Assembly (NCBI GenBank): GCA_039588295.1
Contig: JBDHAB010000044.1
Coordinates: 1 to 21,597, forward strand
Source of the DNA: Gemmatimonadota bacterium
GTDB lineage: Bacteria; Gemmatimonadota; Gemmatimonadetes; Gemmatimonadales; GWC2-71-9
Reading direction: 5' to 3'
DNA length: 21,597 nt
The notes beneath the pieces were generated by a model that made no database searches, was not told the DNA's origin, and saw nothing but the letters and a program-made list of their open reading frames with translations. Of this stretch, positions 1 to 18,120 are shown one piece after another. The position numbers were made by a program, and so were the translations under genes. Numbering within the stretch: the first letter of the stretch is position 1; each line of letters begins with the position of its first letter.

Positions 1-168
1 GCCCACCGCGGCCGCCAACTCGGGGCGCAGCACCTTCACCGCCACCTTGCGCTTGTGCTTGAGATCCTCGGCGAGATAGACGGTGGCCATGCCACCGGCG
101 CCGAGTTCGCGCTCAATGGCGTAGCGGTCGGAAAGGGCGGTCTGGAGACGGTTGAACTGATCGGGCAT
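1..168 (-). CDS. Ser/Thr protein kinase, N-terminal 56 aa (runs off window edge)
   Basis: Manual translation [56 protein letters not shown] has the Gly-rich loop and VAVK lysine; paralogous to 14954..17590. Confidence 0.92.
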
Positions 169-242: not shown

Positions 243-347
243 CGGAGGGCGGGGGACTCGACGCGAAGCGTATGCGAGCGGACCGAGCATCGGCCGCCGC
301 CGATGCGGAGGTCAACCCCCAAGGGCTTGCGCCCGGCGGTTTTCAAG
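243..347 (-). pseudogene. tRNA-Ser(UGA) 3' half (att-site fragment) with 53-bp T-loop insertion
   Basis: Minus strand CTTGAAA-ACCGC-C GGGC GCAA GCCC TT-GGGGG T[insert 262-314]TCGAGT CCCCC-GCCCTCC-G gives anticodon TGA, long variable arm, T-arm, acceptor strand and G discriminator; no 5' half and no CCA. Confidence 0.85.
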
Positions 348-485
348 TTCTTGGCGAGTTTTCGCTTTTCGTTGCTTTCCTTTGCAAATCGTTGCAGTAG
401 CGGGCGGTTAGACGCCGTCCCATTTTCATTCTTTAGCATCTCTTTGCATCTATTTGCAGCGAAACCTTCCCAAAAACCTTCCCAA
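348..485 (+). repeat. Arm type A copy 1 (putative integrase att arm) ending in (AAACCTTCCCAA)x2
   Basis: Near-identical to 3948-4085 and 14802-14938; perfect 12-bp tandem repeat at 462-485. Confidence 0.85.
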
Positions 486-506
486 CGGATCGCCCGTTAT
501 CGCAAC

Positions 507-3500
507 TCAATTCTGATCCGGTCGCAGCTCCTCGGGATCGAACACCAATCCACCCTTGATGACGCGCCAGATCGACTGGGTGTTCTTGATGTCCTCCAAC
601 GGATTCGCGTCGAGCAGAACGATGTCGGCAAGCTTGCCCCCCTCGAGCGTGCCGAGGTCGTTCCCGGCGCCAACGGCTTCTGCTGCGTCGCGGGTGGCGA
701 TGCGAAGCACCTCGAGCGGCGGAATCCCCGCCTCAACGAAATGCTCCATCTCCCAGTGGAGTGCCGAACCAACGAACGCCTGATCGCCGTCACCGGCCAC
801 ATAGACATCCGTGCCGATCAGCAGCTGAATCCCTCGTCGATGCGCCTCGCGGACGTTGGGCAGCTTTACCATCCATAGGCGCTCCAGCCAGGACGTCGCT
901 GCCCACGGATGTAAGCGTGGTGCCATCGCGATTGCCTCTGGAGCCGTGAAGGCAATCAGCTTCGGATCCGACAGTCGCTCTGGTTGGAGACGGAGCATCA
1001 GAGTTGTGCCCACCGGCAGTCCGAGTGTGGGATCCCAGCGCGTTCCTGCGGCGGCTATGAACTGAAGCACGTCATCGTGGACCGGGATCGGGGTAGTCGT
1101 ATGCTCGATCACCGCAAACCCGAGCGTGACCGCATTGACCACTTCCTCTAGGGTCACGCCGTGACCTGTCACCGGTATTCCCACGCGATGCGCCTCATCC
1201 GTCACAGCCCGGTGGAGCCATCGCGGCCTGCCACCGTCAAGACTGTACGATAGGCCGTAGAGCTTGAGGAAGTGAGCGCCCCGCTGCTGCCAGCGTCGGA
1301 CGTAGACTCGCGCCTCCTCGTCGTCATGTAGCAGCGGATCAACGTCTGTGCTGGCGGGTCGCGCCCCAAGAAACTGGCCACCTGCGTAGAAGTGGCGAGG
1401 CACGGGCTCACCTGTGGCAAAGCCTCTGTCTGACATGGCCTCTTGCCAGCTGATCCACCACCCGCAGTCCCGCACAGATGTGATGCCATAGGCCAGGAAC
1501 CCCTCTTCCGTGGTTTGCCGACTCACGTGGACATGCATGTCAAACAATCCCGGGATGGCGTATCGACCGGCCGCGTCGAGGATCTCGGTACCCGCAGGCA
1601 GATCACGCTCGGCTTCTGGTCCGATCGCGCGGATCCGGCCCGATTCGATGAGCAGCGACGTCGCTCCACCGAAGATCCCGGTCTCGAAGTCCAGGAGCCG
1701 TACGCCACGGAGTAAGCGGGGTCGGGGTACTGCCCGCGGGAGCTCCAACTGAAGGGGGATTTCGTCTGGCTGCTGCGCGATAGCTGCGTCCACGGTAGCG
1801 CCACCGACGGGATGGACGAGAACGCGGCTGCTGGACGAGTAGACAAGCGCTGAGCCATCAGCCGTGAATGCGAAGCCGTCACCGCCTTCCGCGCTTAATC
1901 GCCGGACGTCCGTTTCTCGCACGGGCCCCGACGCGCGGAGGGCAAGCCAGATCTCCGTGTTACGGCGAAACGCGAGCCAACGGCCGTCCGGTGAGATGAG
2001 GCCGGTACTGAGATGACGATTCAGCTCGGTGATCGGTCTGGGTCGCGCCCCTGGCAAACGCTCGCGGTTCGGAGTGAGCGCCAGTTCGTACAGCGCTCCC
2101 GCTCCACGTCGGTTTGCGGAAAAGAACAGCGATTGTCCGTCTCTCGAGAAGTGCGGCCGTGGAAGCCAGCTTGAGGCTGACGTCAGAGTCTTCTTCGCGC
2201 CGCTTTCGAGGTGCAGCGCAACGATTCGCTGTCCCTCCGAGAGAACGACGTGACGGCCGTCAGGGCTCCACTCAGGCGGACCGTAGCGAACTCCGGAGTC
2301 GATCACTCGTGTGTCGTTCGACCTAAAGTCGTGTACAGCCAAATCGTCACGACCGAACGCGCTTCCAACGAAGGCGAGGAGCTGCCCATCCGGAGAGAAA
2401 GCGGGATCACGCTCCACCCAGCTGCCGTCCGTTACACGGCTGGCTGGCCCGCCTGAAAGCGGCTGTTCCCACAGGTACCCGGCCGCGCCAAATACCAGAC
2501 GCTGACCGTCCGGTGACAATCTTGGAGTCGCGATTGAGGCCCGTCGCTGCGCCGCTCCACCGAGCGCACGAAGCGGCGGGCGGGTCGGCTCGCGCACCTG
2601 CGCCTTGACCGTGGTGTGAAAGGGAATCGTGTCGCGAACTCCGCTGCTTGCATCGACGCGCCACAGCCTGCCCTGGTCTCCCAAGTACAGCGCGCTTCCA
2701 TCCGTAGCGACACCGGCGCGAGGATGCCGGACCGTATGTTCCATCGTGGTGAAGGGCCGGTCTTCGCGTCCCCGCATCGAATGGTAGACCCACTCCTCGG
2801 ACCTCGCTTCATTAGGCCTCGGCGGGTCGCGATGGTAGAAGAAGCCTTGACCGAGGAAATCGGGAATGACCTCCCACACGAGGCCTGGGAGTACGGTCAC
2901 GCTGTCGATGGCGGTGTAGCCTCTGTCCAGTGAAAGCGCCTCGATCCCTGCCCTCGTCGCCCCCAGTTGGCGGACATACCCCACGCGGCCGTCTGGTAGG
3001 AAGAAGACGGTCTGTAGGACGGCGGCGTCTTGCGTGAGGGAGCTCGGTTCTCCACCGCTCGCTGCAATTACGCGAATGACGCTCACCGGAGTGGAGGCCG
3101 GGAATTGTTGCTCGGCCTCCATGTCGTAGGAAAGGTAGACCAGTTGTTGTCCATCAGGGCTCCACCGCGGCTTCGCGGCCCATGCCTCGTGAGTCACCTG
3201 CCTGATTTGCTGGCTAGGCAGGTCCAGCACGAAGATGTTCCCCTCACTTCCGCCGCGATCGGACACGAACGCCACGTGCTCGCCGTCGGGTGAGACCGCC
3301 GGTTCCGAATCGTAGCACGGGCCGAAGGTCAGCTGCTGAGCCTCACCACCCTCGACGGGGACTCGGTAGAGGTGGCCAAGCATTGTGAAAACCAGCCAAT
3401 GGCCGTCGGGCGTCACCGCGACGTCTGGGGCAGTGACCTCGGTCGTCTCGAATTCGATCGTCCGCCAGCCGGCGTCTGTTCCCGTTGCCTCCTGGGCAGA

Positions 3501-3560
3501 GCTCGGTGCGGAGGCTAGGCTGAGGCTGACGAGCAGGAACGGCACTATGCGCTGCGACAT
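507..3560 (-). CDS. Exported amidohydrolase with N-terminal TolB/PD40 beta-propeller repeats
   Basis: Signal peptide MSQRIVPFLLVSLSLASAPSSA; many (W/F)SPDG repeats; C-terminal PGLFDMHVH, GTD and GKLADIVLLDANPL amidohydrolase motifs. Confidence 0.9.
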   Translation of the reverse strand: MSQRIVPFLLVSLSLASAPSSAQEATGTDAGWRTIEFETTEVTAPDVAVTPDGHWLVFTMLGHLYRVPVEGGEAQQLTFGPCYDSEPAVSPDGEHVAFVSDRGGSEGNIFVLDLPSQQIRQVTHEAWAAKPRWSPDGQQLVYLSYDMEAEQQFPASTPVSVIRVIAASGGEPSSLTQDAAVLQTVFFLPDGRVGYVRQLGATRAGIEALSLDRGYTAIDSVTVLPGLVWEVIPDFLGQGFFYHRDPPRPNEARSEEWVYHSMRGREDRPFTTMEHTVRHPRAGVATDGSALYLGDQGRLWRVDASSGVRDTIPFHTTVKAQVREPTRPPLRALGGAAQRRASIATPRLSPDGQRLVFGAAGYLWEQPLSGGPASRVTDGSWVERDPAFSPDGQLLAFVGSAFGRDDLAVHDFRSNDTRVIDSGVRYGPPEWSPDGRHVVLSEGQRIVALHLESGAKKTLTSASSWLPRPHFSRDGQSLFFSANRRGAGALYELALTPNRERLPGARPRPITELNRHLSTGLISPDGRWLAFRRNTEIWLALRASGPVRETDVRRLSAEGGDGFAFTADGSALVYSSSSRVLVHPVGGATVDAAIAQQPDEIPLQLELPRAVPRPRLLRGVRLLDFETGIFGGATSLLIESGRIRAIGPEAERDLPAGTEILDAAGRYAIPGLFDMHVHVSRQTTEEGFLAYGITSVRDCGWWISWQEAMSDRGFATGEPVPRHFYAGGQFLGARPASTDVDPLLHDDEEARVYVRRWQQRGAHFLKLYGLSYSLDGGRPRWLHRAVTDEAHRVGIPVTGHGVTLEEVVNAVTLGFAVIEHTTTPIPVHDDVLQFIAAAGTRWDPTLGLPVGTTLMLRLQPERLSDPKLIAFTAPEAIAMAPRLHPWAATSWLERLWMVKLPNVREAHRRGIQLLIGTDVYVAGDGDQAFVGSALHWEMEHFVEAGIPPLEVLRIATRDAAEAVGAGNDLGTLEGGKLADIVLLDANPLEDIKNTQSIWRVIKGGLVFDPEELRPDQN

Positions 3561-3626
3561 GAAGCCACCCCCGGTGTGGACCGGACCTGACATGCACGAG
3601 CGAATTCGTCAGCGGTGTTCCGGTCT

Positions 3627-3772
3627 TCGTCGTCGGGCGGGCGTCGTACTGCGGCGTCTGTCGGGCGGCGGAGGCCGGGAGGCCACCGACGGAGAGACTC
3701 TTCTCGCCAATGTGTCACGTGAGCGTGAGCGTGCAACCTCTTAATGCGAGTGTCGCGCTTCGGATTTGGCGT
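3627..3772 (-). promoter_or_regulatory. Conserved 146-bp leader/promoter module, copy 1
   Basis: Ungapped match (11 mismatches by hand count) to 8598-8743; both copies lie upstream of beta-propeller genes. Confidence 0.7.
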
Positions 3773-3792
3773 CCTGCGCGATGGCCAAGGGG

Positions 3793-3840
3793 AGTTGTCG
3801 GTTGTCAGTTGTCAGTTGTTAGCTGACGGCTGATAGCTGC
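3793..3840. repeat. Heptamer tandem/inverted repeats (CAGTTGT / GCTGACG-like) flanking the tRNA fragment
   Basis: agttgtcggttgtcagttgtcagttgttagctgacggctgatagctg; related runs at 229-240 and 10790-10887. Confidence 0.7.
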
Positions 3841-3842
3841 CA

Positions 3843-3947
3843 CGGAGGGCGGGGGACTCGACGCGAAGCGCACGCGAGCGGACCGAGCATCGGCCGCCGC
3901 CGATGCGGAGGTCAACCCCCAAGGGATTGCTCCCGGCGGTTTTCAAG
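3843..3947 (-). pseudogene. tRNA-Ser(UGA) 3' half with 53-bp T-loop insertion, copy 2
   Basis: Same layout as 243-347 at an offset of exactly 3600 bp; variable arm GGGA-GCAA-TCCC; insert at 3862-3914. Confidence 0.85.
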
Positions 3948-4085
3948 TTCTTGGCGAGTTTCTGCTTTTTGTTGCTTTCTTTTGCAAATCGTTGCAGTAG
4001 CGGGCGGTTAGACGCCGTCCCATTTTCATTCTTTAGCATCTCTTTGCATCTATTTGCAGCGAAACCTTCCCAAAAACCTTCCCAA
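3948..4085 (+). repeat. Arm type A copy 2
   Basis: Near-identical to 348-485, including (AAACCTTCCCAA)x2. Confidence 0.85.
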
Positions 4086-4142
4086 GAAACCGTGACGTGC
4101 GCTAGCTTGCGCTCACTTCCACGCGCGGGAGAGGTTCGCAAA

Positions 4143-5432
4143 ATGACCGTCGTATGCCTGCCTAATTGCGCCTTCCTGTCAGAAACCTCTCGCATGATAG
4201 CCATCTACCGGAGCCTGGAGGAGACGGGTGTGCCGGTGCTGATGGCTACTCACGGCGGTACTTTTGAGTTCGTGCTCGAGCGGGAGGGCATACCTTACGA
4301 AACACTCGAGCCGCGGATGAGCAAAGAAGAATGCCATCACTTCGTCGAGCGAGTCATAGACCCTCGTATTCCGGCTTACAACAGAGATACGCTCGAGGCG
4401 CTTGTCCAGTCGGAGATGCAGTTCTTCAAGCAGCGTGACGCGAGCGCTGTTCTCATCGGCTTCACCCTGTCCGCCGTGCTGTCGGCACGGGGCGCCGGCC
4501 TTCCGCTCGTGGTCACCCACCTGGGTTCTTTCGTGCCGCCCGTACTAGAACGAGGAATGTTCGCTTTCGCCGAGTTCTTCGACGGTCCTATCAGCGGCCT
4601 GCTGCCGCGCGCCTGGGTGGACGGGGCTGCCGGCTGGGTGTTTCAGAGAGTCCGGTGGCAGACGCCGCTTTTCAATGCGGTGGCGGACAAACTGCGGATC
4701 GAGCGTGTGCGAAGCACCCTTGACGTCCTCATGGGTGACCTCACGCTGGTGACAGATGTGCCGGAGATCCTGGGGATTCCCGAGGACGAATTGGAAGACT
4801 GGCGGCCGAGCGACACTCGCTTCCTGCGGCCCACCGCGAGATTGAAATATGCCGGCGCGATCTTCGCCCGACTGTTTGGCGATGTGCCCGAGGACGTGTC
4901 GGACTTCTTGCAGACTGAGAAACCGAAGGTGTTCGTCACGCTCTCATCGAGTCGCCGGGAATACGTGGAACGGGTCGTGGCTACCCTGGCGCGGCTTGAC
5001 GTGCGTGCCGTTGTGACGGCCACTGTGCACCAAGGAAGCCTGGGCAAGTCTGATAACATTCTGATCAAGGACTTTCTGCCATCCCATCGAGTCATGCCGA
5101 TGTGCGATCTGGCCATCATCCACGGTGGGCAGGGCAGTGTGCAGACCGCGATCTCCGCTGGTGTTCCGTTAATCGGCTTTCCTTTGCAGCCGGAACAGAA
5201 CTTCAACCTCAGACAAGTCGAGCGGCACGGCGGGGGCTACTGCCTATCGCTGAGGAGCCTGAAACGAGGAAAGCTCCGAGGCGCCGTTGACTGCGTCGCG
5301 CGCGACGCGAGCTACCGCACCGCGATGGCACGGCTGCAAGCTTGGCAGGCGGCGCGTGACGGACCGCTCGAGGTTGCGTGCGCCATCCGATCCTTGTTGC
5401 AGAACGGAGTCCACCTGACATCCACAAGCTGA
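4143..5432 (+). CDS. Glycosyltransferase, GT-B fold (GT1/MGT-like)
   Basis: RBS GGAGAGG before ATG 4143; C-terminal DFLPSHRVMPMCDLAIIHGGQGSVQTAISAGVPLIGFPLQPEQ nucleotide-sugar binding signature; the ORF-track 5' extension is repeat DNA. Confidence 0.88.
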   Translation: MTVVCLPNCAFLSETSRMIAIYRSLEETGVPVLMATHGGTFEFVLEREGIPYETLEPRMSKEECHHFVERVIDPRIPAYNRDTLEALVQSEMQFFKQRDASAVLIGFTLSAVLSARGAGLPLVVTHLGSFVPPVLERGMFAFAEFFDGPISGLLPRAWVDGAAGWVFQRVRWQTPLFNAVADKLRIERVRSTLDVLMGDLTLVTDVPEILGIPEDELEDWRPSDTRFLRPTARLKYAGAIFARLFGDVPEDVSDFLQTEKPKVFVTLSSSRREYVERVVATLARLDVRAVVTATVHQGSLGKSDNILIKDFLPSHRVMPMCDLAIIHGGQGSVQTAISAGVPLIGFPLQPEQNFNLRQVERHGGGYCLSLRSLKRGKLRGAVDCVARDASYRTAMARLQAWQAARDGPLEVACAIRSLLQNGVHLTSTS

Positions 5433-5529
5433 AGACGCGGAGATTCCCTGTTGAAGCGACCCTCATGACGGCTCCCCTGCGGAGGCCGGCGACGAGCTAG
5501 TTGTGGCCTCCCGAGTAGCACCAGCGTCG

Positions 5530-5624
5530 CGTTGCCGTAGCGGGCAGTTCAACGCCCTCCCTTTTGCTCTTCTTGCATCCGTTTGCATCTGTTGGCAGTG
5601 AAACCTTACCAAAAACCTTCCCAA
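5530..5624 (+). repeat. Arm type A copy 3 (partial, diverged, no tRNA fragment)
   Basis: cgttgccgtagcgggcagtt...tttgcatctgttggcagtgaaaccttaccaaaaaccttcccaa aligns with the distal part of arm A. Confidence 0.75.
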
Positions 5625-5631
5625 AAAACCG

Positions 5632-5694
5632 AAAGCCCCGAACGCCGCGTGACGCTCGGGGCTGGGACGACACCGCCTGACGCTAGGCCGGGCG
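5632..5694 (-). terminator. Double-hairpin terminator-like repeat (family C)
   Basis: Minus strand cgcccggcctagcgtcaggcggt...cagccccgagcgtcacgcggcgttcggggcttt, directly after the stop at 5700. Confidence 0.75.
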
Positions 5695-5699
5695 ATACG

Positions 5700-6380
5700 C
5701 TAAAACGCTACGCTCACGTTGAGTGCACCGACGACGAACTCGTCGAAGTCATCAGCGATACCCAATTGGAACACGCCCTTGGGAGTGAACGTAAAGCGCC
5801 CCACCGGTAGCGCGGCTGTGAGCTGCAGATCCGCGTGGCTGAAGTTTGAGCCTACACGATAGTAGTCCACGTTGTAATTGACCCCGCCGGTCGCGGATAC
5901 CGTAGTTGTACCTATCGAACGGCTGTCTGACAGCGTGAAGCGGAAATAGTGTCCTTCCGTGAGCTTGAAGTCCCGAGCGAAGTGCAGCGACGGATTCAGC
6001 GGAAACGCCGTGACGATCCCCACGTAGATCTCTTGCGTCGGTTCCCAGTCACCCACGATCTTGAAGTTGTACAATGCGCCTCCGACATAGCCGCCAATCA
6101 TGTCGGTGAACTGGAGATAGTAGTCCGCCCAGACGTCGCCCTCGTTGATCTCTGCGATATCGAAGTCGTAGCTGGTGAAGCCGTTCAGCGTGAAGCCGGA
6201 GTAGCTGACCGTAACCTTGGCCTGCCCTACCGGGCCGGTTGAAAAAGGAACGCCGGCAAAGAGATAGCGTGTTCTGAACTCCGCATCTGCACTCACCGCG
6301 ACTTGTGCTCGTACGGGTCGCAAACCGACTAGACCCGTGAGAACCAGCACGAATCCCGTGACGGCAAGCAGGTTTTTCAT
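5700..6380 (-). CDS. Putative outer-membrane beta-barrel protein (TorF/Gcw_chp-like)
   Basis: Signal peptide MKNLLAVTGFVLVLTGLVGLRPVRA; RTRYLFAG near the N-terminus; aromatic alternating strands; C-terminal Phe beta-signal. Confidence 0.72.
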   Translation of the reverse strand: MKNLLAVTGFVLVLTGLVGLRPVRAQVAVSADAEFRTRYLFAGVPFSTGPVGQAKVTVSYSGFTLNGFTSYDFDIAEINEGDVWADYYLQFTDMIGGYVGGALYNFKIVGDWEPTQEIYVGIVTAFPLNPSLHFARDFKLTEGHYFRFTLSDSRSIGTTTVSATGGVNYNVDYYRVGSNFSHADLQLTAALPVGRFTFTPKGVFQLGIADDFDEFVVGALNVSVAF

Positions 6381-6411
6381 GTGCACGCTCATGGCTTCTT
6401 GCGCTGTTGCA

Positions 6412-6543
6412 TCAGTGTCGCTGCGCACTCACAATCTTACGCTTTCCGACTGTACCATCGTGCCGCACGAGCACATCGTGCTCGTAGCGCTGGCCGTCGA
6501 TCTCGATCCAGCCGAATTCGGTGCCATCCAAATGCGGGCGCAC
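6412..6543 (-). pseudogene. Truncated Mth938-like (DUF498/598) protein N-terminus, copy 1
   Basis: Manual translation VRPHLDGTEFGWIEIDGQRYEHDVLVRHDGTVGKRK then IVSAQRH*; the FG.I.IDG..YEHDV motif is recognised from memory of the family. Confidence 0.6.
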
Positions 6544-6667
6544 GGCTGGCAGCCTTAGTGAGGGCTGTCTACGAAGCTACGGCGACGCGCTTACAGCGGC
6601 AGCAAGAATGCTGAGCGATTGTGTCGGTGTTCGAGAAGAGCGGGAGAGCAACGCGAGCGACAAAGAA

Positions 6668-6716
6668 GAAGCCCGGAACCCCGCGTGGCGCTCGGGGCTG
6701 GGAGAGCAACCGCCCG
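6668..6716 (-). terminator. Family C terminator-like repeat (degenerate)
   Basis: Minus strand cgggcggttgctctcccagccccgagcgccacgcggggttccgggcttc, downstream of the stop at 6756. Confidence 0.65.
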
Positions 6717-6755
6717 ACTCATGCTGGTTCCCCGGGGCTTGCCCCTGCAAGCAGA

Positions 6756-8546
6756 TCAACGACCTAAATCCTCAATCACCCACAGTTCTAAACGGACCGG
6801 CTCCTCAGCGATGAGAGCGAGTCGTGTTCCCATTGGATTGAGAGCTGCGGCCATGACTTCCATTCCGGTTGGCACATTGATTGTTCCCAGACGGCGTGAC
6901 TGTTCCCCGTTCACCGACGCCCACCAAAGCTCATTTGTTGCGAGGTACAAGAACTGGCGTGAGTCGGGAAACCACAGCGGCGGAGCCGAGGCACCGGGCA
7001 GCTTGTATGACTCGCCCGATACTGAGACGAGTTCCAGAGTCGAGTGCGGTTCCTGTTGGCTCCAGAGTCCGAGCGCTATTCGGCGCCCGTCCGGTGACAT
7101 CTTGTATCCGTACACGTACGGCGGCACAGTGCGAGTGAGCAGTTCTGACTCCTCTCCGGACTCCGGATCGAACCGCAACACTCGCGCAGTGCCGGAGAAT
7201 CCCAGCTGCGGAACGACATAGGTGATTGCCTCACCGTCTCCTGCCCACCCAATCCAATCGATCTGGCGTTCCAAGAACGATGGGGTGCTCGTGATGGTCG
7301 TCCGCGCTCCCGTCTCGACATCGATGCGGTACACGAGCCCAGCGGGCGGTGCCATCGGATCCCAGCCGTTCGCCAGAAGGGAGCGGCCATCGGACGACCA
7401 CTGCGGGTACAATCGATGCAGAATGTCGACATCTTGCGGCAGGTTGCGCACCTCACCGCTCTCAAGAGCCCGGATAGCTATCGTCCACGCTCTCGGTGAT
7501 ACGCCGCCAGCCGGAGCGACATACGCGAGACGGTCGCCGTCTGGTGACCAGTCCACTCCCCCCGTGTGGAAGGCCGGACCTATGAGCTGAGGGGCGTACT
7601 GAAGGTCCGTGGAATCTGTGTCCAGCTCGATCAGGTAGAGAGCACACCGCCCACGGCGGACATGAAAGTAGTACGAGCCATCTGGCGTGGAGGTCGATGG
7701 ATCGAGTGGGCCCACATCAGTGATGAGCACCTCGGGTTCACTCTGACTACCACCATCTGCTACGGGGAGCTCCCAAAGGTCAACCGAGCCAGTGCGGTCG
7801 CTTGCGAATACGATGCCGTGGCCATCGGGAGTCCAGCCGAGTAGCCGGTCATCTGCGGCGTGCTGCACCAGGATACTCTGGTGGTTCCCATCGGCGGTGA
7901 GGAGGTGGATGTCATGATTCGGAGCGTTGCCCCGGATGGACACGTCATAGGCAATGAATCGGCCGTCGGGAGAGAACGCCATCGTCCTGGGAGACTCACC
8001 CCAGACTGGGCTCGTTATGCTCTGCAGCCGGGGCAGTACCGCCATGGAGATCAGCTCTCTGTATGAGCCGTCCGACGCTGAGACCAATCCGACGTGGCCA
8101 GTCGAGTCCGTCCGGAGCGCAACAACCAGAAGGTGCTCTCCATCTGGGGACCAGGCCTTGGGTACCACGTACCGCAGTTCAGGATCTCTGTGCAGAATAC
8201 GAGGCTCGGATCCGCTGACTTCGACCGTGCGAATGTCGAAATAGCCCTCTTCATTCTGCCATGCGTAGCCGATCTGTTGGCCGTCTGGAGAGAACACGGC
8301 CGCAACTACTACCTGGGGCCACTGAGCCCTGGTCAGATTTCGGACCTCCTCAGTCGCCAGATCCCTGATCGCGAGGTTCCCGTACGCCATCCCCGTGGCC
8401 ATCTCGGCGAAAAACTTGCCGTCTGGAGACACCGATAACGGCATCGCACGGTCAGCCACCTTGGATGCCTGTGCGGGTAGATTGGGACTCACGAGCGCCA
8501 GCAGTGGAAGCCACACCAAGAAGCATAGCCTGCGTGTGTAAGACAT
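6756..8546 (-). CDS. Exported TolB-like beta-propeller (PD40 repeat) protein
   Basis: RBS GGGAG; signal peptide MSYTRRLCFLVWLPLLALVSPNLPA; repeated SPDG/WSPDG/WTPDG motifs. Confidence 0.85.
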   Translation of the reverse strand: MSYTRRLCFLVWLPLLALVSPNLPAQASKVADRAMPLSVSPDGKFFAEMATGMAYGNLAIRDLATEEVRNLTRAQWPQVVVAAVFSPDGQQIGYAWQNEEGYFDIRTVEVSGSEPRILHRDPELRYVVPKAWSPDGEHLLVVALRTDSTGHVGLVSASDGSYRELISMAVLPRLQSITSPVWGESPRTMAFSPDGRFIAYDVSIRGNAPNHDIHLLTADGNHQSILVQHAADDRLLGWTPDGHGIVFASDRTGSVDLWELPVADGGSQSEPEVLITDVGPLDPSTSTPDGSYYFHVRRGRCALYLIELDTDSTDLQYAPQLIGPAFHTGGVDWSPDGDRLAYVAPAGGVSPRAWTIAIRALESGEVRNLPQDVDILHRLYPQWSSDGRSLLANGWDPMAPPAGLVYRIDVETGARTTITSTPSFLERQIDWIGWAGDGEAITYVVPQLGFSGTARVLRFDPESGEESELLTRTVPPYVYGYKMSPDGRRIALGLWSQQEPHSTLELVSVSGESYKLPGASAPPLWFPDSRQFLYLATNELWWASVNGEQSRRLGTINVPTGMEVMAAALNPMGTRLALIAEEPVRLELWVIEDLGR

Positions 8547-8597
8547 CGTACGCTCCCGGACTGTGCAGTGCAGTTCGCGTGGGCTGACCCAGTGGCC

Positions 8598-8743
8598 TCG
8601 TCGTCGGGCGGGCGTCACACTGCGGCGTCTGTCGGGCGGCGGAGGCCGGGAGGCCACCGACGGAGAGACTCTTCTCGCCAATGTGTCACGGCAGCGTGAG
8701 CGTGCAAGCCGGTAATGCGAGTGTCGCGCTTCAGATTCAGCGT
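8598..8743 (-). promoter_or_regulatory. Conserved 146-bp leader/promoter module, copy 2
   Basis: Matches 3627-3772; candidate TTGCAC...CACATT promoter followed by a GC-rich leader. Confidence 0.7.
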
Positions 8744-8924
8744 GTTCGGGTGGTGGTCACCGTCGTCGTCACGCTGAAGTGCATCATCAGTGTCACAGTG
8801 CTGCGGATACGCGATGGCCAGCGCACGCCGCGGCATAGATGCGTGGTGGAACTCCTCTCGCCCTCAATCCAGAGCACCGGTTTCGCCTTGCGGAGTCCGG
8901 GAACGGCGTACCATAGTCCGCGTT

Positions 8925-9092
8925 ATGGAGTTCCTCAACTTCCTCATCATTCTCTGGATCGCCTGGCTGCTGTGGCGGCGGCCCGAGCTGGAGCGGCTTG
9001 CCTTCGCCCTCCTCGTGGTCAGCTGCCTCCTCATGGCGCTCTTGTTTTTCGTCGGGACCCACACGTCCCTCGTGCCGGGAGTGAATCTGTGA
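8925..9092 (+). CDS. dba: Small membrane protein, DsbI accessory protein (Dba-like), 55 aa
   Basis: MEFLNFLIILWIAWLLWRRPELERLAFALLVVSCLLMALLFFVGTHTSLVPGVNL; two TM segments; stop overlaps the GTG start of the next gene (GTGA), the gene order of the Campylobacter dba-dsbI operon. Confidence 0.75.
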   Translation: MEFLNFLIILWIAWLLWRRPELERLAFALLVVSCLLMALLFFVGTHTSLVPGVNL

Positions 9093-10582
9093 CGGTGCTG
9101 TCCGAAGACCGCCTGCGCACCGTGCTCGCGTGGATCGTGATCATCCTGATCGGCGGCCCGGTGGGCGCAGCCGTCTGGCTCGGCGTGGTGTACGGGGAGG
9201 CGCCCTGCATCCTCTGCTGGGCACAGCGCACCTCGATGGTGCTGCTCGGGCTGCTCGGGCTGTTCGTGCTCCGCTACGGTCCGCGCCCCCGCTACATCGG
9301 CATGGTGGTGCTACTCGGCGCGTTCGGGGTGTTCATGTCGCTCCGCCATGCGGCACTCCACCTGGCGCGCGACGTGGGCCAGGGCTTCGCCGCCCCCTAC
9401 TTCGGCGCCCACACGTACGTATGGGCCTGGTTCGTCCACTGGGTCGTGCTGGCCGTCGTCGGCGTGCTGCTGCTCCTTTTGCGCGAGCAGCCGGTTCGAC
9501 AGGGCGTGCGCGACCCTGGCCGAGTCGGCCGCATTGCCATGACGCTCTTCCTCGTCGTGGTCGGCGCGAACGCGCTCCAGGCGCTCATCACCACCGGCCC
9601 TCCCCCGTTCATCGGCCAGGCCGACCCGGTCCGCTTCTCGTTCAATCCCCGGCATTGGGTGTGGATGAACCAAGAGGAACTGGCGGGACGGATCTCGCTC
9701 CGCGGGGCGTGGACCATTCCGCGGCCCGATCCTGCGTCGATCGTCATGGACCCCGATCCCGCGGGAGGACCGCTCGCGGACATCCAGGTGCTGCCCGTCG
9801 AGGTGTGGGAGAGCATCGGTACCACGCTCGACGGGCGACTCAACGGCTTGGCCCGCGATCCGGCGACCGGCCGGTTCATCGCCGTCACCGAGCGATACAG
9901 CGTCTACGTGCTCGACTCGGCACTCACGCGGATCGAGCACCACGTGGAGCTCGACCATCAGTACAGCATTGAGCTCACGCCGCTCGCCGGGGCGGCGCTC
10001 GTGGGCGACACACTCGCCGTGCTGGCCACCAACAAGAGCTACCTCCTGCTCCGGCCCGATCCCGCGGCGGACGCCGACCGCGAGTGGCGGCACTTCCGCA
10101 AGACCAGTGGCGGCATCACCGAGCTCCGACGCTCGCGCTTCGCGACCGTGCGCGCTCGCCAGATGTACGTGCTGTCGCTGGCATACGACCCTGAGGCGCA
10201 CGAGCTGATCACCGTCAGTGTGCCGTCCCCGAGGCACCGGCGGATGGTCGTATCGCGGTTCGCCCGCGACGACATGACGCTCGCCTCCGAGTTCCTGCCG
10301 CGGCTGGGACCGGGACTGGCGCTCAGCGGTGACGATCGCTCACTCGCGGAATACGTGGTGACCGGCGCCGTGGTCGCGGATGGGCTGCTCTACGCGATCA
10401 GCGCCGAGTATTCGACGTTGCTCGTCATCGATCTCGACGGGATGCGTGTGGTCGCGGCATACGCGGTACCGGGGCTCGAGCAGCCCGTGGGGCTCGCGGC
10501 GCGGGGGGCGCAGCTGCTCGCGGCGCAGGCGGACGGCCGGATTGCCGTGATCGAGCGACCGGACCTTCCAGGAGAACCGTGA
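9089..10582 (+). CDS. dsbI: DsbB-family disulfide bond formation protein with large C-terminal periplasmic domain (DsbI-like)
   Basis: PCILCWAQR CxxC motif, about five TM helices, GPPPFIGQADPVRFSFNP motif, C-terminal beta-rich domain. Confidence 0.82.
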   Translation: MTVLSEDRLRTVLAWIVIILIGGPVGAAVWLGVVYGEAPCILCWAQRTSMVLLGLLGLFVLRYGPRPRYIGMVVLLGAFGVFMSLRHAALHLARDVGQGFAAPYFGAHTYVWAWFVHWVVLAVVGVLLLLLREQPVRQGVRDPGRVGRIAMTLFLVVVGANALQALITTGPPPFIGQADPVRFSFNPRHWVWMNQEELAGRISLRGAWTIPRPDPASIVMDPDPAGGPLADIQVLPVEVWESIGTTLDGRLNGLARDPATGRFIAVTERYSVYVLDSALTRIEHHVELDHQYSIELTPLAGAALVGDTLAVLATNKSYLLLRPDPAADADREWRHFRKTSGGITELRRSRFATVRARQMYVLSLAYDPEAHELITVSVPSPRHRRMVVSRFARDDMTLASEFLPRLGPGLALSGDDRSLAEYVVTGAVVADGLLYAISAEYSTLLVIDLDGMRVVAAYAVPGLEQPVGLAARGAQLLAAQADGRIAVIERPDLPGEP

Positions 10583-10644
10583 GTCGTCGGGCAGTTCCGA
10601 TCGTTGCGCTTCGCGCCCATCCGCCGAAATTACATGCACCGCGT

Positions 10645-10764
10645 GAGTCTCTGCTTTTCGTTGCTTTCTTTAGCAAATCGTTGCAGTACATCGTGGTTGG
10701 GCGCCCTCCCTTTTTCATTCCTTTGCATATGCTTGCAGCGAAACCTTCCCAAAAAACTTCCCAA
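10645..10764 (+). repeat. Arm type A copy 4 (no tRNA fragment)
   Basis: gagtctctgcttttcgttgctttctttagcaaatcgttgcagta...gcagcgaaaccttcccaaaaaacttcccaa. Confidence 0.8.
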
Positions 10765-10789
10765 GAAATCGAAAGCCGGCAGGGGAGTC

Positions 10790-10887
10790 GCAGTTGTCGG
10801 TGCTCAGTTGTCAGCCGGCACGACCGCTGATGGCTGTAGCCTGACGGCTGATGGCAATGTCACTGATGACTGAGAACTGACAACTGC
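10790..10887. repeat. Heptamer-built long inverted repeat
   Basis: gcagttgtcggtgctcagttgtcag pairs with ctgatgactgagaactgacaactgc (21/25 by hand count). Confidence 0.7.
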
Positions 10888-10899
10888 TTACTGTGTGAA

Positions 10900-10963
10900 C
10901 GGAGGGCGGGGGTTTCACGCGAAGCGCACACGAGGTGCGGAACCTTCCCAAGAAGCTTCCCAA
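10900..10963. repeat. Collapsed att unit: tRNA-Ser 3' end plus start of the insertion, fused to the arm A terminal repeat
   Basis: cggagggcgggggtttcacgcgaagcgcacacgag joined to aaccttcccaagaagcttcccaa. Confidence 0.7.
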
Positions 10964-11058
10964 ACGGCGCATGGCATGAGACGCAAGACACCGCAAGCTT
11001 TGCGGTGGGTGGGGGACTCGGCGGCCGGCTGCCTCAATCCGGGCGGCGGTTGATTGTG

Positions 11059-11511
11059 CTAATGTTCAATGCGATGGGTGTCCCGCACACTGCTAAATGT
11101 CAACGCTAACAATTTCCAACCATCATTTTGTTCTTCATAGACTTCGGTAACCGTAAACTCATTCGACACCTCATTGCCGCGAACCACGGCCAACAGAGTA
11201 ATGCGGTTCCAAAGGACGGCAGTGTCGTCAAAGACTTCTACCACGACTTCGTGGACATCAGCTTGCTTGTAGTGAATGCTCCCGCTTCTGATGATGTCGA
11301 GCTCCTGGTTCTTCCCCCAGGTTCCGCTCATATGGACGAATCTCGCCTGGTCGTGGAAGAGTGTAGCAAGCGTGTCCGCGTCTTGCTCTGACATCCAGCG
11401 CCACTTTTCTCTGGAGAGATCAATGATCTCTTGTTCCACACTCGTTTGTTGTGCGCTGGCCCATTGCACACTCACCATCAATACAAACAGTCCGAGAGTC
11501 GACGCTCTCAT
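11059..11511 (-). CDS. Exported NTF2-like (DUF4440) protein
   Basis: Signal peptide ending WASA; alpha-then-beta NTF2 pattern with terminal TEVY...DGWKLL; RBS AAGGG; visibly lower GC than its neighbours. Confidence 0.85.
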   Translation of the reverse strand: MRASTLGLFVLMVSVQWASAQQTSVEQEIIDLSREKWRWMSEQDADTLATLFHDQARFVHMSGTWGKNQELDIIRSGSIHYKQADVHEVVVEVFDDTAVLWNRITLLAVVRGNEVSNEFTVTEVYEEQNDGWKLLALTFSSVRDTHRIEH

Positions 11512-11764
11512 GTCAACTCAACCCTTTCTCCTCGAGAAATGCAGATAGAAGATCCGCGATTCTGAGGTTGTTCAGGTCTGAAAACACGAAGTGTGTGTTG
11601 CCTCGGATTCCTATTTCCGGCAGATGCACCAAGGTTACGTCACCACCATGCCGATTTACGGCGTTCCGAGAACATTAGGGGTTGGAGCCAGGGAGCGCTA
11701 GCGAGGAGCAGGGTGAGGCAGTAGGAGCTGCCGCACTTTGTGGAAGGCAATCGTGTAAGTGCAA

Positions 11765-11869
11765 CGGAGGGCCGGGGATTCGACGCGAAGCGCAGGCGAG
11801 CGGATCGAGCATCGGCCGCCCCCGATGCGAAGATCAACCCCGATGCGGTTGCCCGCGCCGGTTTTCAAG
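11765..11869 (-). pseudogene. tRNA-Ser(UGA) 3' half, second allele, with 53-bp T-loop insertion
   Basis: Minus strand CTTGAAA-ACCGG-C GCGG GCAA CCGC AT-CGGGG T[insert 11784-11836]TCGAAT CCCCG-GCCCTCC-G. Confidence 0.85.
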
Positions 11870-12008
11870 TTCGACCGATGGGTTTGCGTCCCCGTGTCAT
11901 AGGGCGCTATGTGGCTCGCACGCCGCGCGTTAGACGATGCCGGTCTTCCGTCCCATTGCGCTCCGTTGCATCTGTTTCGCTCCCTTTGTGTCCAGAGTTG
12001 TGTCCAGA
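11870..12008 (+). repeat. Arm type B (putative att arm) ending in TTGTGTCCAGA x2 with 12-bp period
   Basis: Same length as arm A (139 vs 138 bp); shares gttagacg, cgtcccatt and ttgcatct; abuts the integrase stop codon. Confidence 0.7.
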
Positions 12009-12018
12009 CTCCTGCCCT

Positions 12019-12330
12019 TCAGGCTGTCTCCCGTTCCTCCTTGGCGGCCTGGACCGGCTCGGTTAACGCCGTCAGGTGCTCGCGTGCCAAGTGCGTGTAG
12101 GCCATGGTCACCCGGAGGTCGCTGTGGCCCATCGCCTCCTTAACGAGCACGACGTCGCGTCCCTCGGCGAGCCAAGTGGTCACGCGGCGATGCCGGAGAT
12201 CGTGCGGACGGAACCCCGTAGGTGTCTTCGCAATCTTCGCGGCTTTCGCGAGGCTGTCGTAGAACGAACCGACCCGCTCCCCGGCCCGATGCTGGCGTCG
12301 GGTCTCGATGTGGTGAAAGACCCAAGGCGA
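12019..12330 (-). pseudogene. Tyrosine recombinase/integrase C-terminal remnant
   Basis: FRPHDLRH...LAEGRDVVLVKEAMGHSDLRVTMAYTHL contains H-x-x-R, H and catalytic Y; N-terminal domains and the first catalytic Arg are missing, replaced by a repeated leader at ~12340. Confidence 0.9.
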
Positions 12331-12420
12331 GCGCGCACCTCTGCTGGCGCTGTGAGCGCGTCGACGTAGCTTCGTAACCAGCAAGCTGCAAATCCAGGGC
12401 AATCACCGAGGCTGCCAGCC

Positions 12421-12570
12421 GTGCGCCCACACTTGGACCGCACCGAATTCGGCTGGATCGAGATTGACGGCCTGCGCTACGAGCATGACGTGCTCGTGAG
12501 GCGCGACGGTACAGTTGAGAAGCGCAAGAAGAAGTGTTCACCTCCATGCGGTGCCCGCTCTCGGACGTGA
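12421..12570 (+). pseudogene. Truncated Mth938-like protein N-terminus, copy 2
   Basis: VRPHLDRTEFGWIEIDGLRYEHDVLVRRDGTVEKRKKK then an unrelated tail; inverted paralogue of 6412-6543, including the upstream region. Confidence 0.6.
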
Positions 12571-12872
12571 CCCGGTTCGAGGCGTACCAGGGGCGGAAGT
12601 CCCTCACCAGGCAAGTAATGGGTATCGGGTTTGTCCTCGGTGCTATGACAGGGTTTGCGGTGGCTCACAGGTCGGACTGCGGAGACCTTGACCGAGCAAT
12701 CTGCATCGTGGGAGGCGTGACGCTTGGCGGGGGCGCAGTACTCCTCATCGGCGCTGCTGCCGGGGCTGTAATCAGGACCGACCGCTGGGAGGCGGTTTCG
12801 CTCGACCGCTTGCGCGTGAGTGTCCTGCCGCACCGTGACGGCTTCGGCATCGGGGCAAGGATCGCGTTCTAG
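12546..12872 (+). CDS. Hypothetical Gly-rich membrane protein, probably 5'-truncated
   Basis: Two glycine-zipper-like hydrophobic segments and C-terminal FGIGARIAF; no RBS or signal peptide, and it begins at the junction with the Mth938-like fragment. Confidence 0.55.
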   Translation: MRCPLSDVTRFEAYQGRKSLTRQVMGIGFVLGAMTGFAVAHRSDCGDLDRAICIVGGVTLGGGAVLLIGAAAGAVIRTDRWEAVSLDRLRVSVLPHRDGFGIGARIAF

Positions 12873-12960
12873 CGACGCGCCGGGTCGGTTGCGTTTTCAT
12901 GCTTGACGCCGCCTTGACGGCTCGTGCCTACGTTCGATGCGTCTCTCTCGGGAGGCGACC

Positions 12961-13338
12961 ATGCGTCACACGTTGGTCGCTACGCTCCTGCTCCTAGCTC
13001 CCCTCGGCTGCGGCGAGGGCCCTCAGCCGGTCGAGCCCTCTGTCGCGTACAGCAATCTCCAAGTCGGGCCCGGGGTCACGCCGACGTTTTCATGGGATGG
13101 TATGGACGCATGGCACATTTGGGTATCACGTGTCGACGATGGTGAAGTCGTCTGGCGCATTAGGAATGAGACGTGCTTTATCACCATCAAGTCACCGGTT
13201 GTCTACGGCAGCATACCGGGGCACCCAGCAGAGTCGCTCGTAGTCGAGCCGGTTCTCACTGAGGGCGTGACCTACCAGGTCACGGTGGAGTTCACCTGCG
13301 GTGGTGACGCGCGGCTGAGAAAGACTTTCACACCATGA
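12961..13338 (+). CDS. Hypothetical lipoprotein
   Basis: RBS GGAGG; MRHTLVATLLLLAPLGC lipobox-like signal. Confidence 0.75.
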   Translation: MRHTLVATLLLLAPLGCGEGPQPVEPSVAYSNLQVGPGVTPTFSWDGMDAWHIWVSRVDDGEVVWRIRNETCFITIKSPVVYGSIPGHPAESLVVEPVLTEGVTYQVTVEFTCGGDARLRKTFTP

Positions 13339-13378
13339 CGCAGACGCAGCGCCACGGCGTTTGTCGGGAGAGGTCGCC

Positions 13379-13738
13379 ATGCGCCGACTGTCCGCATCAT
13401 TAACGATCCTTGTTGCCGCCTGTGCGGCTCACTCCCAGCCCGCAAGGGGGCCGGCAACGGTTGGGGAACAGCTCGACTGTGGGTTGAATGTCGCCTTCGG
13501 AGGCGGGTACTCAGCCACGACCACACTGAAGGATGAAGGTAGGAGGGGACTGAACTGCGTGGAGATGCGGAATGCGGAGGGCTCTTACTTCGACGTATGT
13601 GTCCGAGTGCGGAACGAGAGCGTGATCGTGAGTGGAGGCCGCCCCAAATTTGGATTTGGGGAAAACGAGAGCCCAGCGGATCAGGCCCTGAGCCGCCGAA
13701 TCCCTCGTGTCTGCCCGGCGAGGCCGCTTCGCAAGTAG
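13379..13738 (+). CDS. Hypothetical lipoprotein
   Basis: RBS GGAGAGG; MRRLSASLTILVAAC lipobox; four further Cys. Confidence 0.65.
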   Translation: MRRLSASLTILVAACAAHSQPARGPATVGEQLDCGLNVAFGGGYSATTTLKDEGRRGLNCVEMRNAEGSYFDVCVRVRNESVIVSGGRPKFGFGENESPADQALSRRIPRVCPARPLRK

Positions 13739-13751
13739 GAACTCCGCTGCA

Positions 13752-13810
13752 CCCGGCCCCGCGCCGGGCGGTGTCGGCTTAGCCCCGAGCGTCTCGGCTT
13801 CGGGGCTTTT
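13752..13810 (+). terminator. Family C terminator-like repeat between convergent genes
   Basis: cccggccccgcgccgggcggt...agccccgagcgtctcggcttcggggctttt. Confidence 0.75.
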
Positions 13811-13822
13811 GCTGCAGCGAGC

Positions 13823-14296
13823 CTAGCCACCAGCCTGTAGCGCCTCCGTAAGTGCCTCGACCGCCTCCTGCACGCTCGTCATGGCCGCCTCCAAACGCAT
13901 CAACCGCTCGGCAAGCTCTTCGCGGGTGAACCCGCCCGTGGCATACTCGACGATGTGCAGCCCCTCCCCCGCACGCAGCGGCCCGCCGATGAGTGTCTGT
14001 TGCTCCGCCGTGATCGTGACACCGCGTTTGACCAACGTCACCACACCCTCACCCTCTAACCGCACGTCGTAGACGCCTGGATCGGGCCAGAAACTTCCGT
14101 TGTTGCCTACCCACACTTCGGTCTGCGTTACGATGACGCCGTCCTGGATCACGCTGATCATGACCGGCGTCCCTTCAAGTGCCTCTCCCGATGCGGCCCT
14201 GACCTGTACGGTGAGGCTCTGGCCGGACACGGGTCGGGGGTGCCACAGGGCAAAGCCTGCGGCAAGCAGCAAGACACTCCGTGACGCGTTCATCAT
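13823..14296 (-). CDS. Exported protein with carboxypeptidase-regulatory-like beta-sandwich and C-terminal coiled coil
   Basis: RBS GGAGGG; signal peptide; GEALEG...PGVYDVRLEGEG pattern; heptad-rich helix at the C-terminus. Confidence 0.7.
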   Translation of the reverse strand: MMNASRSVLLLAAGFALWHPRPVSGQSLTVQVRAASGEALEGTPVMISVIQDGVIVTQTEVWVGNNGSFWPDPGVYDVRLEGEGVVTLVKRGVTITAEQQTLIGGPLRAGEGLHIVEYATGGFTREELAERLMRLEAAMTSVQEAVEALTEALQAGG

Positions 14297-14383
14297 GGTG
14301 CCCTCCGGAAGGGGATACACAATGGTCCCGGTCGGGAGTTGTGAGCGCAAGTAGCACCGGACTATCTGACGACGACGGCCTTC

Positions 14384-14417
14384 CAGTCCCGAGCGTCACC
14401 CGGCGTTCGGGGCTTTT
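14384..14417 (+). terminator. Family C hairpin, orphan copy
   Basis: cagtcccgagcgtcacccggcgttcggggctttt with no plus-strand gene immediately upstream. Confidence 0.6.
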
Positions 14418-14634
14418 CTTTGCACCTGAGCGAGTTGCGTGACGGTAGGGAAGGCAGGCGAACACCTTATCGAGTTTGCGAAGATCTTTGCGAAAACTTC
14501 GCGGACATCCTGGGAATGGCGCTTCTAGGCAGGTCGGGGTGAATGGCGAGACGGGCGGCGCAAGTTGCGCGGCCCGTGGTGTCTAGCAGGGTCAGGCTGC
14601 TCCTTCCGAGGCGCAGGCTGCGCCCCTTCGGCGT

Positions 14635-14667
14635 GCTTTGCAAGCCGGGGGTCGTGGGTTCGAATCC
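14635..14667 (+). pseudogene. tRNA-Ala(UGC)-like fragment (anticodon loop to T-loop)
   Basis: GC TTTGCAA GCCGG GGGTC GTGGG TTCGAAT CC; no D-arm or acceptor pairing. Confidence 0.6.
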
Positions 14668-14749
14668 GGGAGGCACTCCTCGGTCCGTTAGTCTCCCGTT
14701 GTGTCCTGGGATGTGTCCAGCCGCTCAGGCCCAAATCGCGTAAGTCCAA

Positions 14750-14801
14750 CGGAGGGCCAGGGATTCGAACCCCGATGCGGTTGCCCGCGGCGGTTTTCAA
14801 G
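14750..14801 (-). pseudogene. tRNA-Ser(UGA) 3' half, second allele, uninterrupted T-loop
   Basis: Minus strand CTTGAAA-ACCGC-C GCGG GCAA CCGC AT-CGGGG TTCGAAT CCCTG-GCCCTCC-G, 52 bp. Confidence 0.88.
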
Positions 14802-14938
14802 TTCTTGGCGAGTTTTTGCTTTTCGTTACTTTCCTTTGCAAATCGTTGCAGTAGCGGGCGGTTGGACACCCGAGCTTTTTCATTCCTTTGCATATCTTTG
14901 CATCTGTTTGCAGCGAAACCTTCCCAAAAACCTTCCCA
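14802..14938 (+). repeat. Arm type A, full-length copy
   Basis: Aligns along its full length with 348-485; ends aaaccttcccaaaaaccttccca. Confidence 0.85.
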
Positions 14939-17590: not shown

Positions 17591-18120
17591 TGTCGCAAAG
17601 ATAGGCGTCGCGTTGCCAAACGGCGAGAACGCCGCCCGGATTTGGCACACTATTGGCACACAAGCGCAAGAAATGAGCGGCCAAGAAACACCGCCACGAA
17701 CCCGCACGTCGGACACCGCCACACCTCCCACCGCTCATCCGGCGCTCCCGCACCGCAACACAGTTGTAAGTCGTGGCGGCCTCGCGCCTAGCAAGTCATC
17801 TCGTCGCCACAGAAACAGCAGATACGGTCCATCGCGTCCTCCGGTGAGGGATGCGCGACGGTAGCGCGGGAGTGTCAACGTACTCGCACGACTCGCCGGA
17901 GAATGGCGTTAGCCACGATAGCTGACAATTTCGCTCCAATTGTGGCATTGCTACGACTCTTGTTAACAATGGTCCCGTTTCGTATTAAGGCGAAACAGAT
18001 GTAATTACCGTCGGTGGCTCCGCTCGGCCCCGCCGCTATGGAACGCACATCGCTGGGGCGATGCTCCACGCCAGCATTGCGGAGATTCCAGCGGGATCAA
18101 CCCGACCTGGGAGGTGCACC

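Follow-up and report, generated by a model that had tools for sequence, protein, structure and literature searches.

Gene-carrying elements that stack in tandem at attachment (att) sites are known from several bacteria, and the array described here, a row of tRNA-Ser-derived att units separating small gene blocks in a Gemmatimonadota genome, is compared with them. The array was studied in the window, by which we mean the whole 21,597-nt stretch analysed; it spans contig C44 from end to end, so that no sequence lies to its right, in the source genome G000 (GWC2-71-9; contigs are written as genome:contig and examined loci as L numbers). Cis-mobilizable elements (CIMEs) undergo tandem accretion at att sites in streptococci (PMC5704250). 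Like these, the blocks carry no integration or transfer genes and probably stack by repeated site-specific integration (PMC5704250), and both attL and attR are kept by block 6 of the window and by 12 blocks in relatives, though not by the window blocks with TGGGAAG-type arms. Unlike streptococcal CIMEs, the blocks are tiny (median ~2.3 kb), each locus has numerous junctions, arm repeats can be seen and T-loops carry insertions, and no partner of the integrative and conjugative (ICE) or integrative and mobilizable (IME) type was found here. Dehalococcoides also carries many tandem islands behind one RNA gene, ssrA; they hold metabolic cargo, and 15 of the 31 lack an integration module and were proposed to be CIMEs, some of them now fixed (PMC3146451). 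That system differs in its serine recombinase, its 20-bp repeat, its larger islands and the retention of the module in 16 of 31 (PMC3146451), whereas the present array has a tyrosine integrase family, an anticodon-loop core and no member with a full integrase.

The anticodon-loop class of Islander likewise comprises a tRNA gene and a displaced fragment, with an attP of about 250 bp and 3' and rarer 5' fragment types (PMC4383910); block 6 and an island in another genome (G142, see below) fit this class. Islander admits islands only with an integrase and a length of 2 kb or more, and lists only four tandems of three or more in 2168 genomes (PMC4383910); the blocks here would fail these filters. 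As the original prediction had it, no window block has an intact integrase of its own, and the scrap of one in block 6 (12019-12351) had been missed. In Prochlorococcus tycheposon islands, too, transient elements push older ones inward and leave partial tRNAs and integrase fragments, but tycheposons carry integrase and replication modules (10.1101/2020.12.28.424599), and neither these nor the packaging genes of phage satellites were seen in the blocks. A literature search, with most subscription papers outside its reach, returned nothing on such Gemmatimonadota arrays or on T-loop hairpin insertions.

The repeats are docking scars of small gene packets, nearly all lacking an integrase of their own, inserted successively at tRNA-Ser, and the array is a dense version of a known gene-collecting route. 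Its density, the small block size, the family-wide spread over two tRNAs and a candidate helper integrase are notable. On balance we favour, with modest confidence, a reading in which reduced, integrase-less elements moved as such, as CIME-like mini-islands, and then decayed.

Att units and their geometry

The seven predicted units were recovered in the same orientation at the expected places, all on the minus strand. No tRNA was called in the window by ARAGORN, and an Rfam scan of it gave no match at E <= 0.5. There are six TGGGAAG-type arm doublets and four 11-nt cores (CTTGAAAACCG), all on the minus strand, against means of 0.0 doublets and 0.005 cores in 200 shuffles of the window. Read in the tRNA sense, a full unit opens with the arm doublet, runs through 115 nt of spacer to CTTGAAA and closes with the tRNA-Ser(UGA) 3' half. 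The units, together with two features of block 6, are as follows.

243..485, minus: unit 1, attR-like; arms 466-484, 115-nt spacer, core CTTGAAA 341-347; T-loop hairpin insertion 261-314 in its tRNA-Ser(UGA) 3' half
3843..4085, minus: unit 2, attR-like; arms 4066-4084, core 3941-3947, insertion 3861-3914
5530..5624, minus: unit 3, truncated; arms 5605-5623 and partial spacer, without core or tRNA sequence
10645..10764, minus: unit 4, truncated; arms 10745-10763 followed by most of the spacer, with core and tRNA half lost
10898..11023, minus: unit 5, deleted form; 40-nt spacer between a tRNA 3'-end scrap (11003-11023) and arms 10944-10962
11765..12008, minus: unit 6, attR with arms of a second type (TGGACAC doublet 11988-12006); core 11863-11869 after a 115-nt spacer, T-loop insertion 11783-11836
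12019..12351, minus: tyrosine integrase C-terminal scrap; covers profile positions 274-381 of 384, with 60% identity to the full G142 integrase
14701..14719, minus: second TGGACAC doublet, 30 nt behind the unit 7 tRNA 3' end; left (attL-side) arm of block 6
14750..14938, minus: unit 7, hybrid junction; arms of TGGGAAG type 14920-14938, core 14795-14801 after a 115-nt spacer

Core and tRNA 3' half are kept in four of the seven units (1, 2, 6 and 7), and in units 1 and 2 identity to tRNA-Ser(UGA) begins at position 33, with CTTGAAA. Units 3 and 4 hold no tRNA sequence, and the arms of unit 5 are fused to the end of an insertion and to a second tRNA 3' end, a deleted form that recurs in L023, L045 and L098. 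Identification of the units as att sites is upheld by the anticodon-loop core, the arm repeats and the polarity of the array: the tRNA fragments start at the core and are oriented as the tRNA (on the same strand in L023 and L098). At least three variable-arm alleles occur among the tRNA fragments. Since the TGGACAC doublet of block 6 lies 30 nt behind the TGGGAAG-type unit 7, unit 7 is a hybrid junction. The different arms of unit 6, the integrase scrap directly behind which unit 6 lies and the partner doublet at 14701-14719 mark block 6 as a 2.7-kb eroded island of a second specificity.

Arm geometry was measured by a fuzzy doublet search over 45 loci, which found 76 doublets, 40 of them with a core downstream, and missed a few degenerate arms. 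The arm-to-core spacing is 115 nt in 31 of these 40 full units and 113-117 nt in 37 (89, 91 and 105 nt in the remaining three), constant despite identities to unit 1 of 51 to 97%. Second arms lie behind the tRNA end at 30-31 nt in 13 of 24 cases, at 39-41 nt in ten and at 25 nt in one, and the two main distance classes are about one helical turn apart. Such phasing is needed by arm-binding integrases of the lambda type. The fixed distance is accompanied by an arm motif that matches that of the integrase-bearing G142 island.

Regular spacing of this kind also bears on a mechanism without any integrase, in which a few old att scars would exchange by homologous recombination or gene conversion, helped by uptake of DNA from relatives, and the units would thereby be multiplied and made alike. 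Units 1 and 2, 96% identical with the insertion included (their tRNA variable-arm alleles differ), would suit it, as would a T-loop insertion of one kind found in units with different arms and an M3-peptidase stretch shared by G000 and G004 (1162 bp, 92% identity) that starts at the displaced tRNA 3' end without an arm. Recombination fails, however, on the exact 115-nt spacing at 60-70% identity, on the hybrid junction at unit 7 and on the matching arms beside tRNA-Cys halves in other genera, and we regard it as improbable.

The T-loop of unit 7 is intact, and the other three tRNA halves carry the hairpin insertion of about 54 nt. More widely, hairpins of 40-54 nt and at least three kinds, sometimes as a tandem pair, sit in displaced tRNA-Ser and tRNA-Cys halves (also in L025, L027, L035 and L177), and all six BLAST matches of the hairpin in G000 fall within tRNA fragments. 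G000 has one Y1 transposase gene. On L036 (G001:C44, 5860-5960) there is a second full-length tRNA-Ser(UGA) whose 3' half carries a T-loop insertion, as would be expected if a 5' half had joined a damaged displaced half. The hairpins may lock a block in, since its excision would rebuild a broken tRNA.

Misassembly of repeated sequence was also considered, because kinase paralogs stand at both ends of the contig and a search for end overlaps of at least 20 nt did not tie it to C47, C69, C77, C21 or C160. Against this, the unit copies all differ in sequence, similar arrays occur in independent genomes and metagenome contigs, and pieces of the window recur with zero differences in sequencing runs X1 and X2 (contigs only; best share 0.28), one contig of run X1 spanning unit 4. 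Depth in the runs is low over cargo and high over units and was not used as evidence. Misassembly is very improbable.

The locus in relatives

The sole tRNA-Ser(UGA) call of G000 lies on C47, 110 bp from the contig end, with two acceptor-stem mismatches as judged by eye. Other units of G000 are found on C69 (two), C77 (two) and C21 (one, degraded), and C1 has one with a tRNA-Cys half, 3 kb behind tRNA-Cys. The units are grouped on few contigs and not dispersed across the genome. The locus in relatives reads FHA-SLT gene, tRNA-Ser(UGA), array, DUF6962, SufE genes and tRNA-Ser(GCU), and the enclosing flank genes correspond in G000 to the end of C160 and to C21. The exact arm doublet is present in G000 and, within the genus, in six of the eight other genomes. 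In G003 the conserved flanks enclose no array, which makes it the empty site; G001, G004 and G008 carry differing inserts at tRNA-Ser(UGA). Block content and order vary between relatives as foreseen; copper modules stand in opposite order in G001 and G004. On G004:C73 and on L098 the row behind the intact tRNA reads arms, cargo, full unit, and it contains no integrase (L098 is filed under another genus, shares its tRNA context with genus g1 and may have been mis-binned).

Among 401 sampled genomes of the family, 43 carry the doublet, at 83 places in all, against about 14 control matches. It stands in att context in at least 27 of the 43 (five were left out of this inspection), outside the genus mostly at tRNA-Cys; G442:C14 carries a complete 2.1-kb element there. 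The ends have been shared horizontally: in the arm regions G000 agrees with G004 at 92% and with G008 at 94% (90% and 92% over the spacer), against 71-73% identity for xerC/xerD. The M3-peptidase stretch shared with G004, the 79% match of a window PD40 gene to the first gene behind the tRNA in L098, the reordered copper modules and the several variable-arm alleles also speak for movement.

Several further features of these genomes were recorded. Units in G004-G006 are separated in places by a shared structured element, 300-500 nt long (L027 at 14955-15282 and 12370-12979, L031, L043, L050 and L058), and ARAGORN calls its tRNA-like part Ala, Val or Trp. Stacked fragments of tRNA-Arg(CCG) and tRNA-Ala(UGC) on G000 contigs C46, C54, C65 and C5 suggest that similar accretion may have taken place at other tRNAs. 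Nineteen tRNA genes with repeated isoacceptors and an unusual His(ATG) call are clustered on C14 (47647-63751).

Integrases and the origin of the blocks

A full candidate integrase was found in G142:C3, where a 9.3-kb island at tRNA-Cys carries a 409-aa integrase with the arm motif of the units and a 115-nt spacer. The island sits 5' of tRNA-Cys and is bounded by its own 5' tRNA fragment; the same layout occurs at tRNA-Ser(UGA) on G167:C208, where it is cut by the contig end. In both, the integrase and the units' arms lie directly upstream of the tRNA, and the integrase ends at the arm nearer the tRNA. Shared arms and spacing tie the units to the G142 integrase family, whose binding to them is predicted, and use of tRNA-Ser(UGA) as attB by this Gemmatimonadota tyrosine-integrase family is the best explanation of the sequence data. 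The lack of an integrase beside the far arm does not prove non-autonomy, as the G142 integrase sits at the other arm.

A profile of the integrase family was built from 87 full-length homologs. Family scraps were found at three places among 47 array and flank sequences and the whole of G000 (the window, G005:C455 and L043), and a fourth on G063:C70, where tRNA-Cys is followed by a deletion, in which the arm next to it and half of the integrase were lost, and then by cargo and the far arm. G000 has 13 PF00589 hits, and the window scrap is the sole member of the cognate family among them. The nine genomes of the genus, all of them fragmented assemblies of 80-650 contigs, yielded no full cognate integrase. 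Integrase matches at E <= 1e-40 occur in 14 of the 401 family genomes (four candidates scored per genome), none of them in the genus, and no complete downstream-type autonomous TGGGAAG island was found among these 14. Blocks bounded by arms on both sides, twelve in 43 loci (602-8882 bp, median ~2.3 kb), gave no integrase-profile match; the complete integrase-less mini-islands that had been proposed do exist in relatives. Integrase, transposase, relaxase, replication and phage Pfam families were absent (E <= 1e-5) from 107 array and flank proteins, drawn from 227 protein clusters with most backbone and distant-flank genes left out and the window genes scanned separately. In a PHROG scan of 32 proteins the integrase matches came from two integrase queries only, and two further matches were of unknown or other function. 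Viral contigs gave 21 arm-pattern matches, none with a nearby core or family integrase, and three weak matches (26-27%) to the integrase query; no phage helper was found among them.

These results bear directly on the proposal of an integron-like array. An integron is composed of IntI, attI and attC cassettes. The array resembles one as a polarised row of small gene blocks, each ending in a recombination site, and differs in having tRNA-derived sites with arms and no resident cognate integrase that could be found. A resident, host-maintained integrase that shuffled single-gene cassettes at the tRNA would account for the polarity, the small blocks and the reordered cargo, and the G142 and G167 integrases with matching arms do lie directly upstream of the tRNA. 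The G142 integrase, however, belongs to an island with its own 5' tRNA fragment, many junctions are broken, and the units are composed of arm, spacer, core and tRNA half, that is, arm-and-core att sites and not attC hairpins (no dedicated attC model was run). Because no full cognate integrase was found in the nine fragmented genus genomes, the array is not regarded as a true integron, and the proposal does not survive in the strict sense; we consider such a system unlikely. A separate gene near the start of G000:C3 (777-1790, L116) codes for an integron-type integrase, IntI-like by its sequence motifs.

Anticodon-loop crossover, restoration of the tRNA and outward displacement are an established mechanism. 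At this locus an incoming circle would cross over in the anticodon loop and its own 3' half would restore the tRNA, each insertion pushing the old 3' half and the earlier residents outwards. Many incoming elements were probably already small and integrase-less, with little beyond their two arm regions and a small number of cargo genes. A helper island of matching arm specificity, present for a time, would supply the integrase that excised and inserted them in trans, or accretion could proceed in cis. The junctions would then decay by loss of arm or core or by insertion of a hairpin into the displaced T-loop, leaving the blocks fixed. The sequence of the window is mostly in such a late, decayed state, and its blocks look mostly immobilised.

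The serious rival is plain erosion, in which every block arrived autonomous, lost its integrase in place and never moved in reduced form. It draws on the four integrase scraps, the partial deletion on G063:C70 and the truncated and fused units of the window. With the integrase at the near arm, as in G142 and G167, none is expected at the far arm; the constant spacing and the cross-species identity also fit recent autonomous islands, and other tRNAs of G000 bear stacked fragments too. Plain erosion needs many independent deletions that removed the mobility genes and spared both arms, as none of the 12 two-armed blocks has an integrase trace and none of the 107 proteins a mobility family, and no intact downstream-type island of this arm type was found in the 14 family genomes with an integrase match. 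We hold it to be possible and the less probable account. Mini-islands and an eroded stack had been put forward as alternatives; both are visible, the one in the integrase-less two-armed blocks and the other in the integrase scraps and truncated units, and they look like stages of one process.

A number of observations weigh against the movement of reduced elements. The scraps show that some blocks did arrive with an integrase, and helper islands may be absent from the data, the genus assemblies all being fragmented. None of the TGGGAAG-type window blocks has both arms around its cargo, so the proposed 3600-bp circle (243-3842) would carry only half an attP, and neither a circle or excision joint in general nor a 3842-to-243 joint in particular was found in sequencing-run contigs among the joints listed (15 of 107, and 12 in a further table). 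The deleted arm form starts two of the 12 two-armed blocks. No near-identical two-armed block was found in two distant genomes, and the window amidohydrolase is only 42% identical to its G004 counterpart. In G001 the reordered copper modules meet without an att unit between them, and the G008 array, with an extra gene beyond its last unit, does not close distally in a clean att junction when compared with G003.

The favoured reading, reduced elements moving as such, could be taken further. A dedicated family of miniature integrase-less elements, spread through the Gemmatimonadota family and defined by phased arms only, might capture ordinary chromosomal genes, pass from one species to another and from tRNA-Ser to tRNA-Cys or back, and depend for their integrase on helpers inserted on the 5' side while they themselves stack 3'. 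We put this forward tentatively.

Cargo and implications

Across the arrays the cargo comprises kinases, beta-propellers, hydrolases, copper and phosphate genes, and regulators. The remaining features of the window are the following.

1..168, minus: first part of another Ser/Thr kinase gene, which lies behind unit 1 and runs off the contig
507..3560, minus: block 1 cargo, PD40 beta-propeller and amidohydrolase, 1017 aa
3627..3772, minus: conserved non-coding leader preceding cargo genes, without Rfam match; second copy (92% identity) at 8598-8743
4143..5432, plus: block 2 cargo, glycosyltransferase (EryCIII-like/UDPGT)
5629..5694, minus: terminator-like hairpin repeat abutting an arm; 55 BLAST hits on 25 contigs
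5700..10582, mixed strands: block 3 cargo, four genes
5700..6380, minus: block 3 protein without Pfam family
6756..8546, minus: block 3 PD40 protein, 79% identical in nucleotides to the first gene behind tRNA-Ser in L098
8925..10582, plus: block 3 small membrane protein and DsbB-domain protein
11059..11511, minus: block 5 cargo, DUF4440/SnoaL-like protein
12534..14296, mixed strands: block 6 small cargo open reading frames, three without Pfam family and one carboxypeptidase-regulatory-like
14475..14667, plus: att-site remnant on the strand opposite to the array; a short direct repeat (approximately 14475-14495) and, at 14635-14667, 33 nt that match tRNA-Ala(UGC) exactly
14954..17590, minus: Ser/Thr kinase-TPR gene ending at unit 7

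The expectation of one gene per block is borne out by blocks 1, 2 and 5; block 3 has four genes and block 6 several small reading frames. The homolog of the block 1 protein in G004:C180 lies directly before a unit. The hairpin at 5629-5694 was tried as an attC-like site and rejected, being a dispersed repeat that is not specific to att sites. Positions 6435-6604 and 12342-12567 are inverted copies (87%) that include the start of a DUF498 gene, of which C21 has a full copy, and sequence overlapping the integrase scrap. An extra short direct-repeat doublet and a repeated GTGGCGGTGT-rich stretch occur at 17641-17760 and 20487-20525; an integrase fragment on G000:C93 has a stretch like it upstream, and these repeats are possibly the ends of other islands. 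Ser/Thr kinase genes very often begin directly behind a unit (in the window and in L021, L027, L034, L042 and L045), and the kinase family has 28 members in the examined loci and 75 tblastn hits in G000.

With an arm motif, a spacing rule and a full candidate integrase (G142) now defined, trans-mobilisation of integrase-less islands becomes testable; if the mini-islands are fossil, the locus would be a well-mapped case of known accretion. Island finders that require an integrase and 2 kb overlook such elements, and a route by which a little-cultured phylum takes up accessory genes, among them kinases, hydrolases, copper resistance and regulators, thus goes uncounted.

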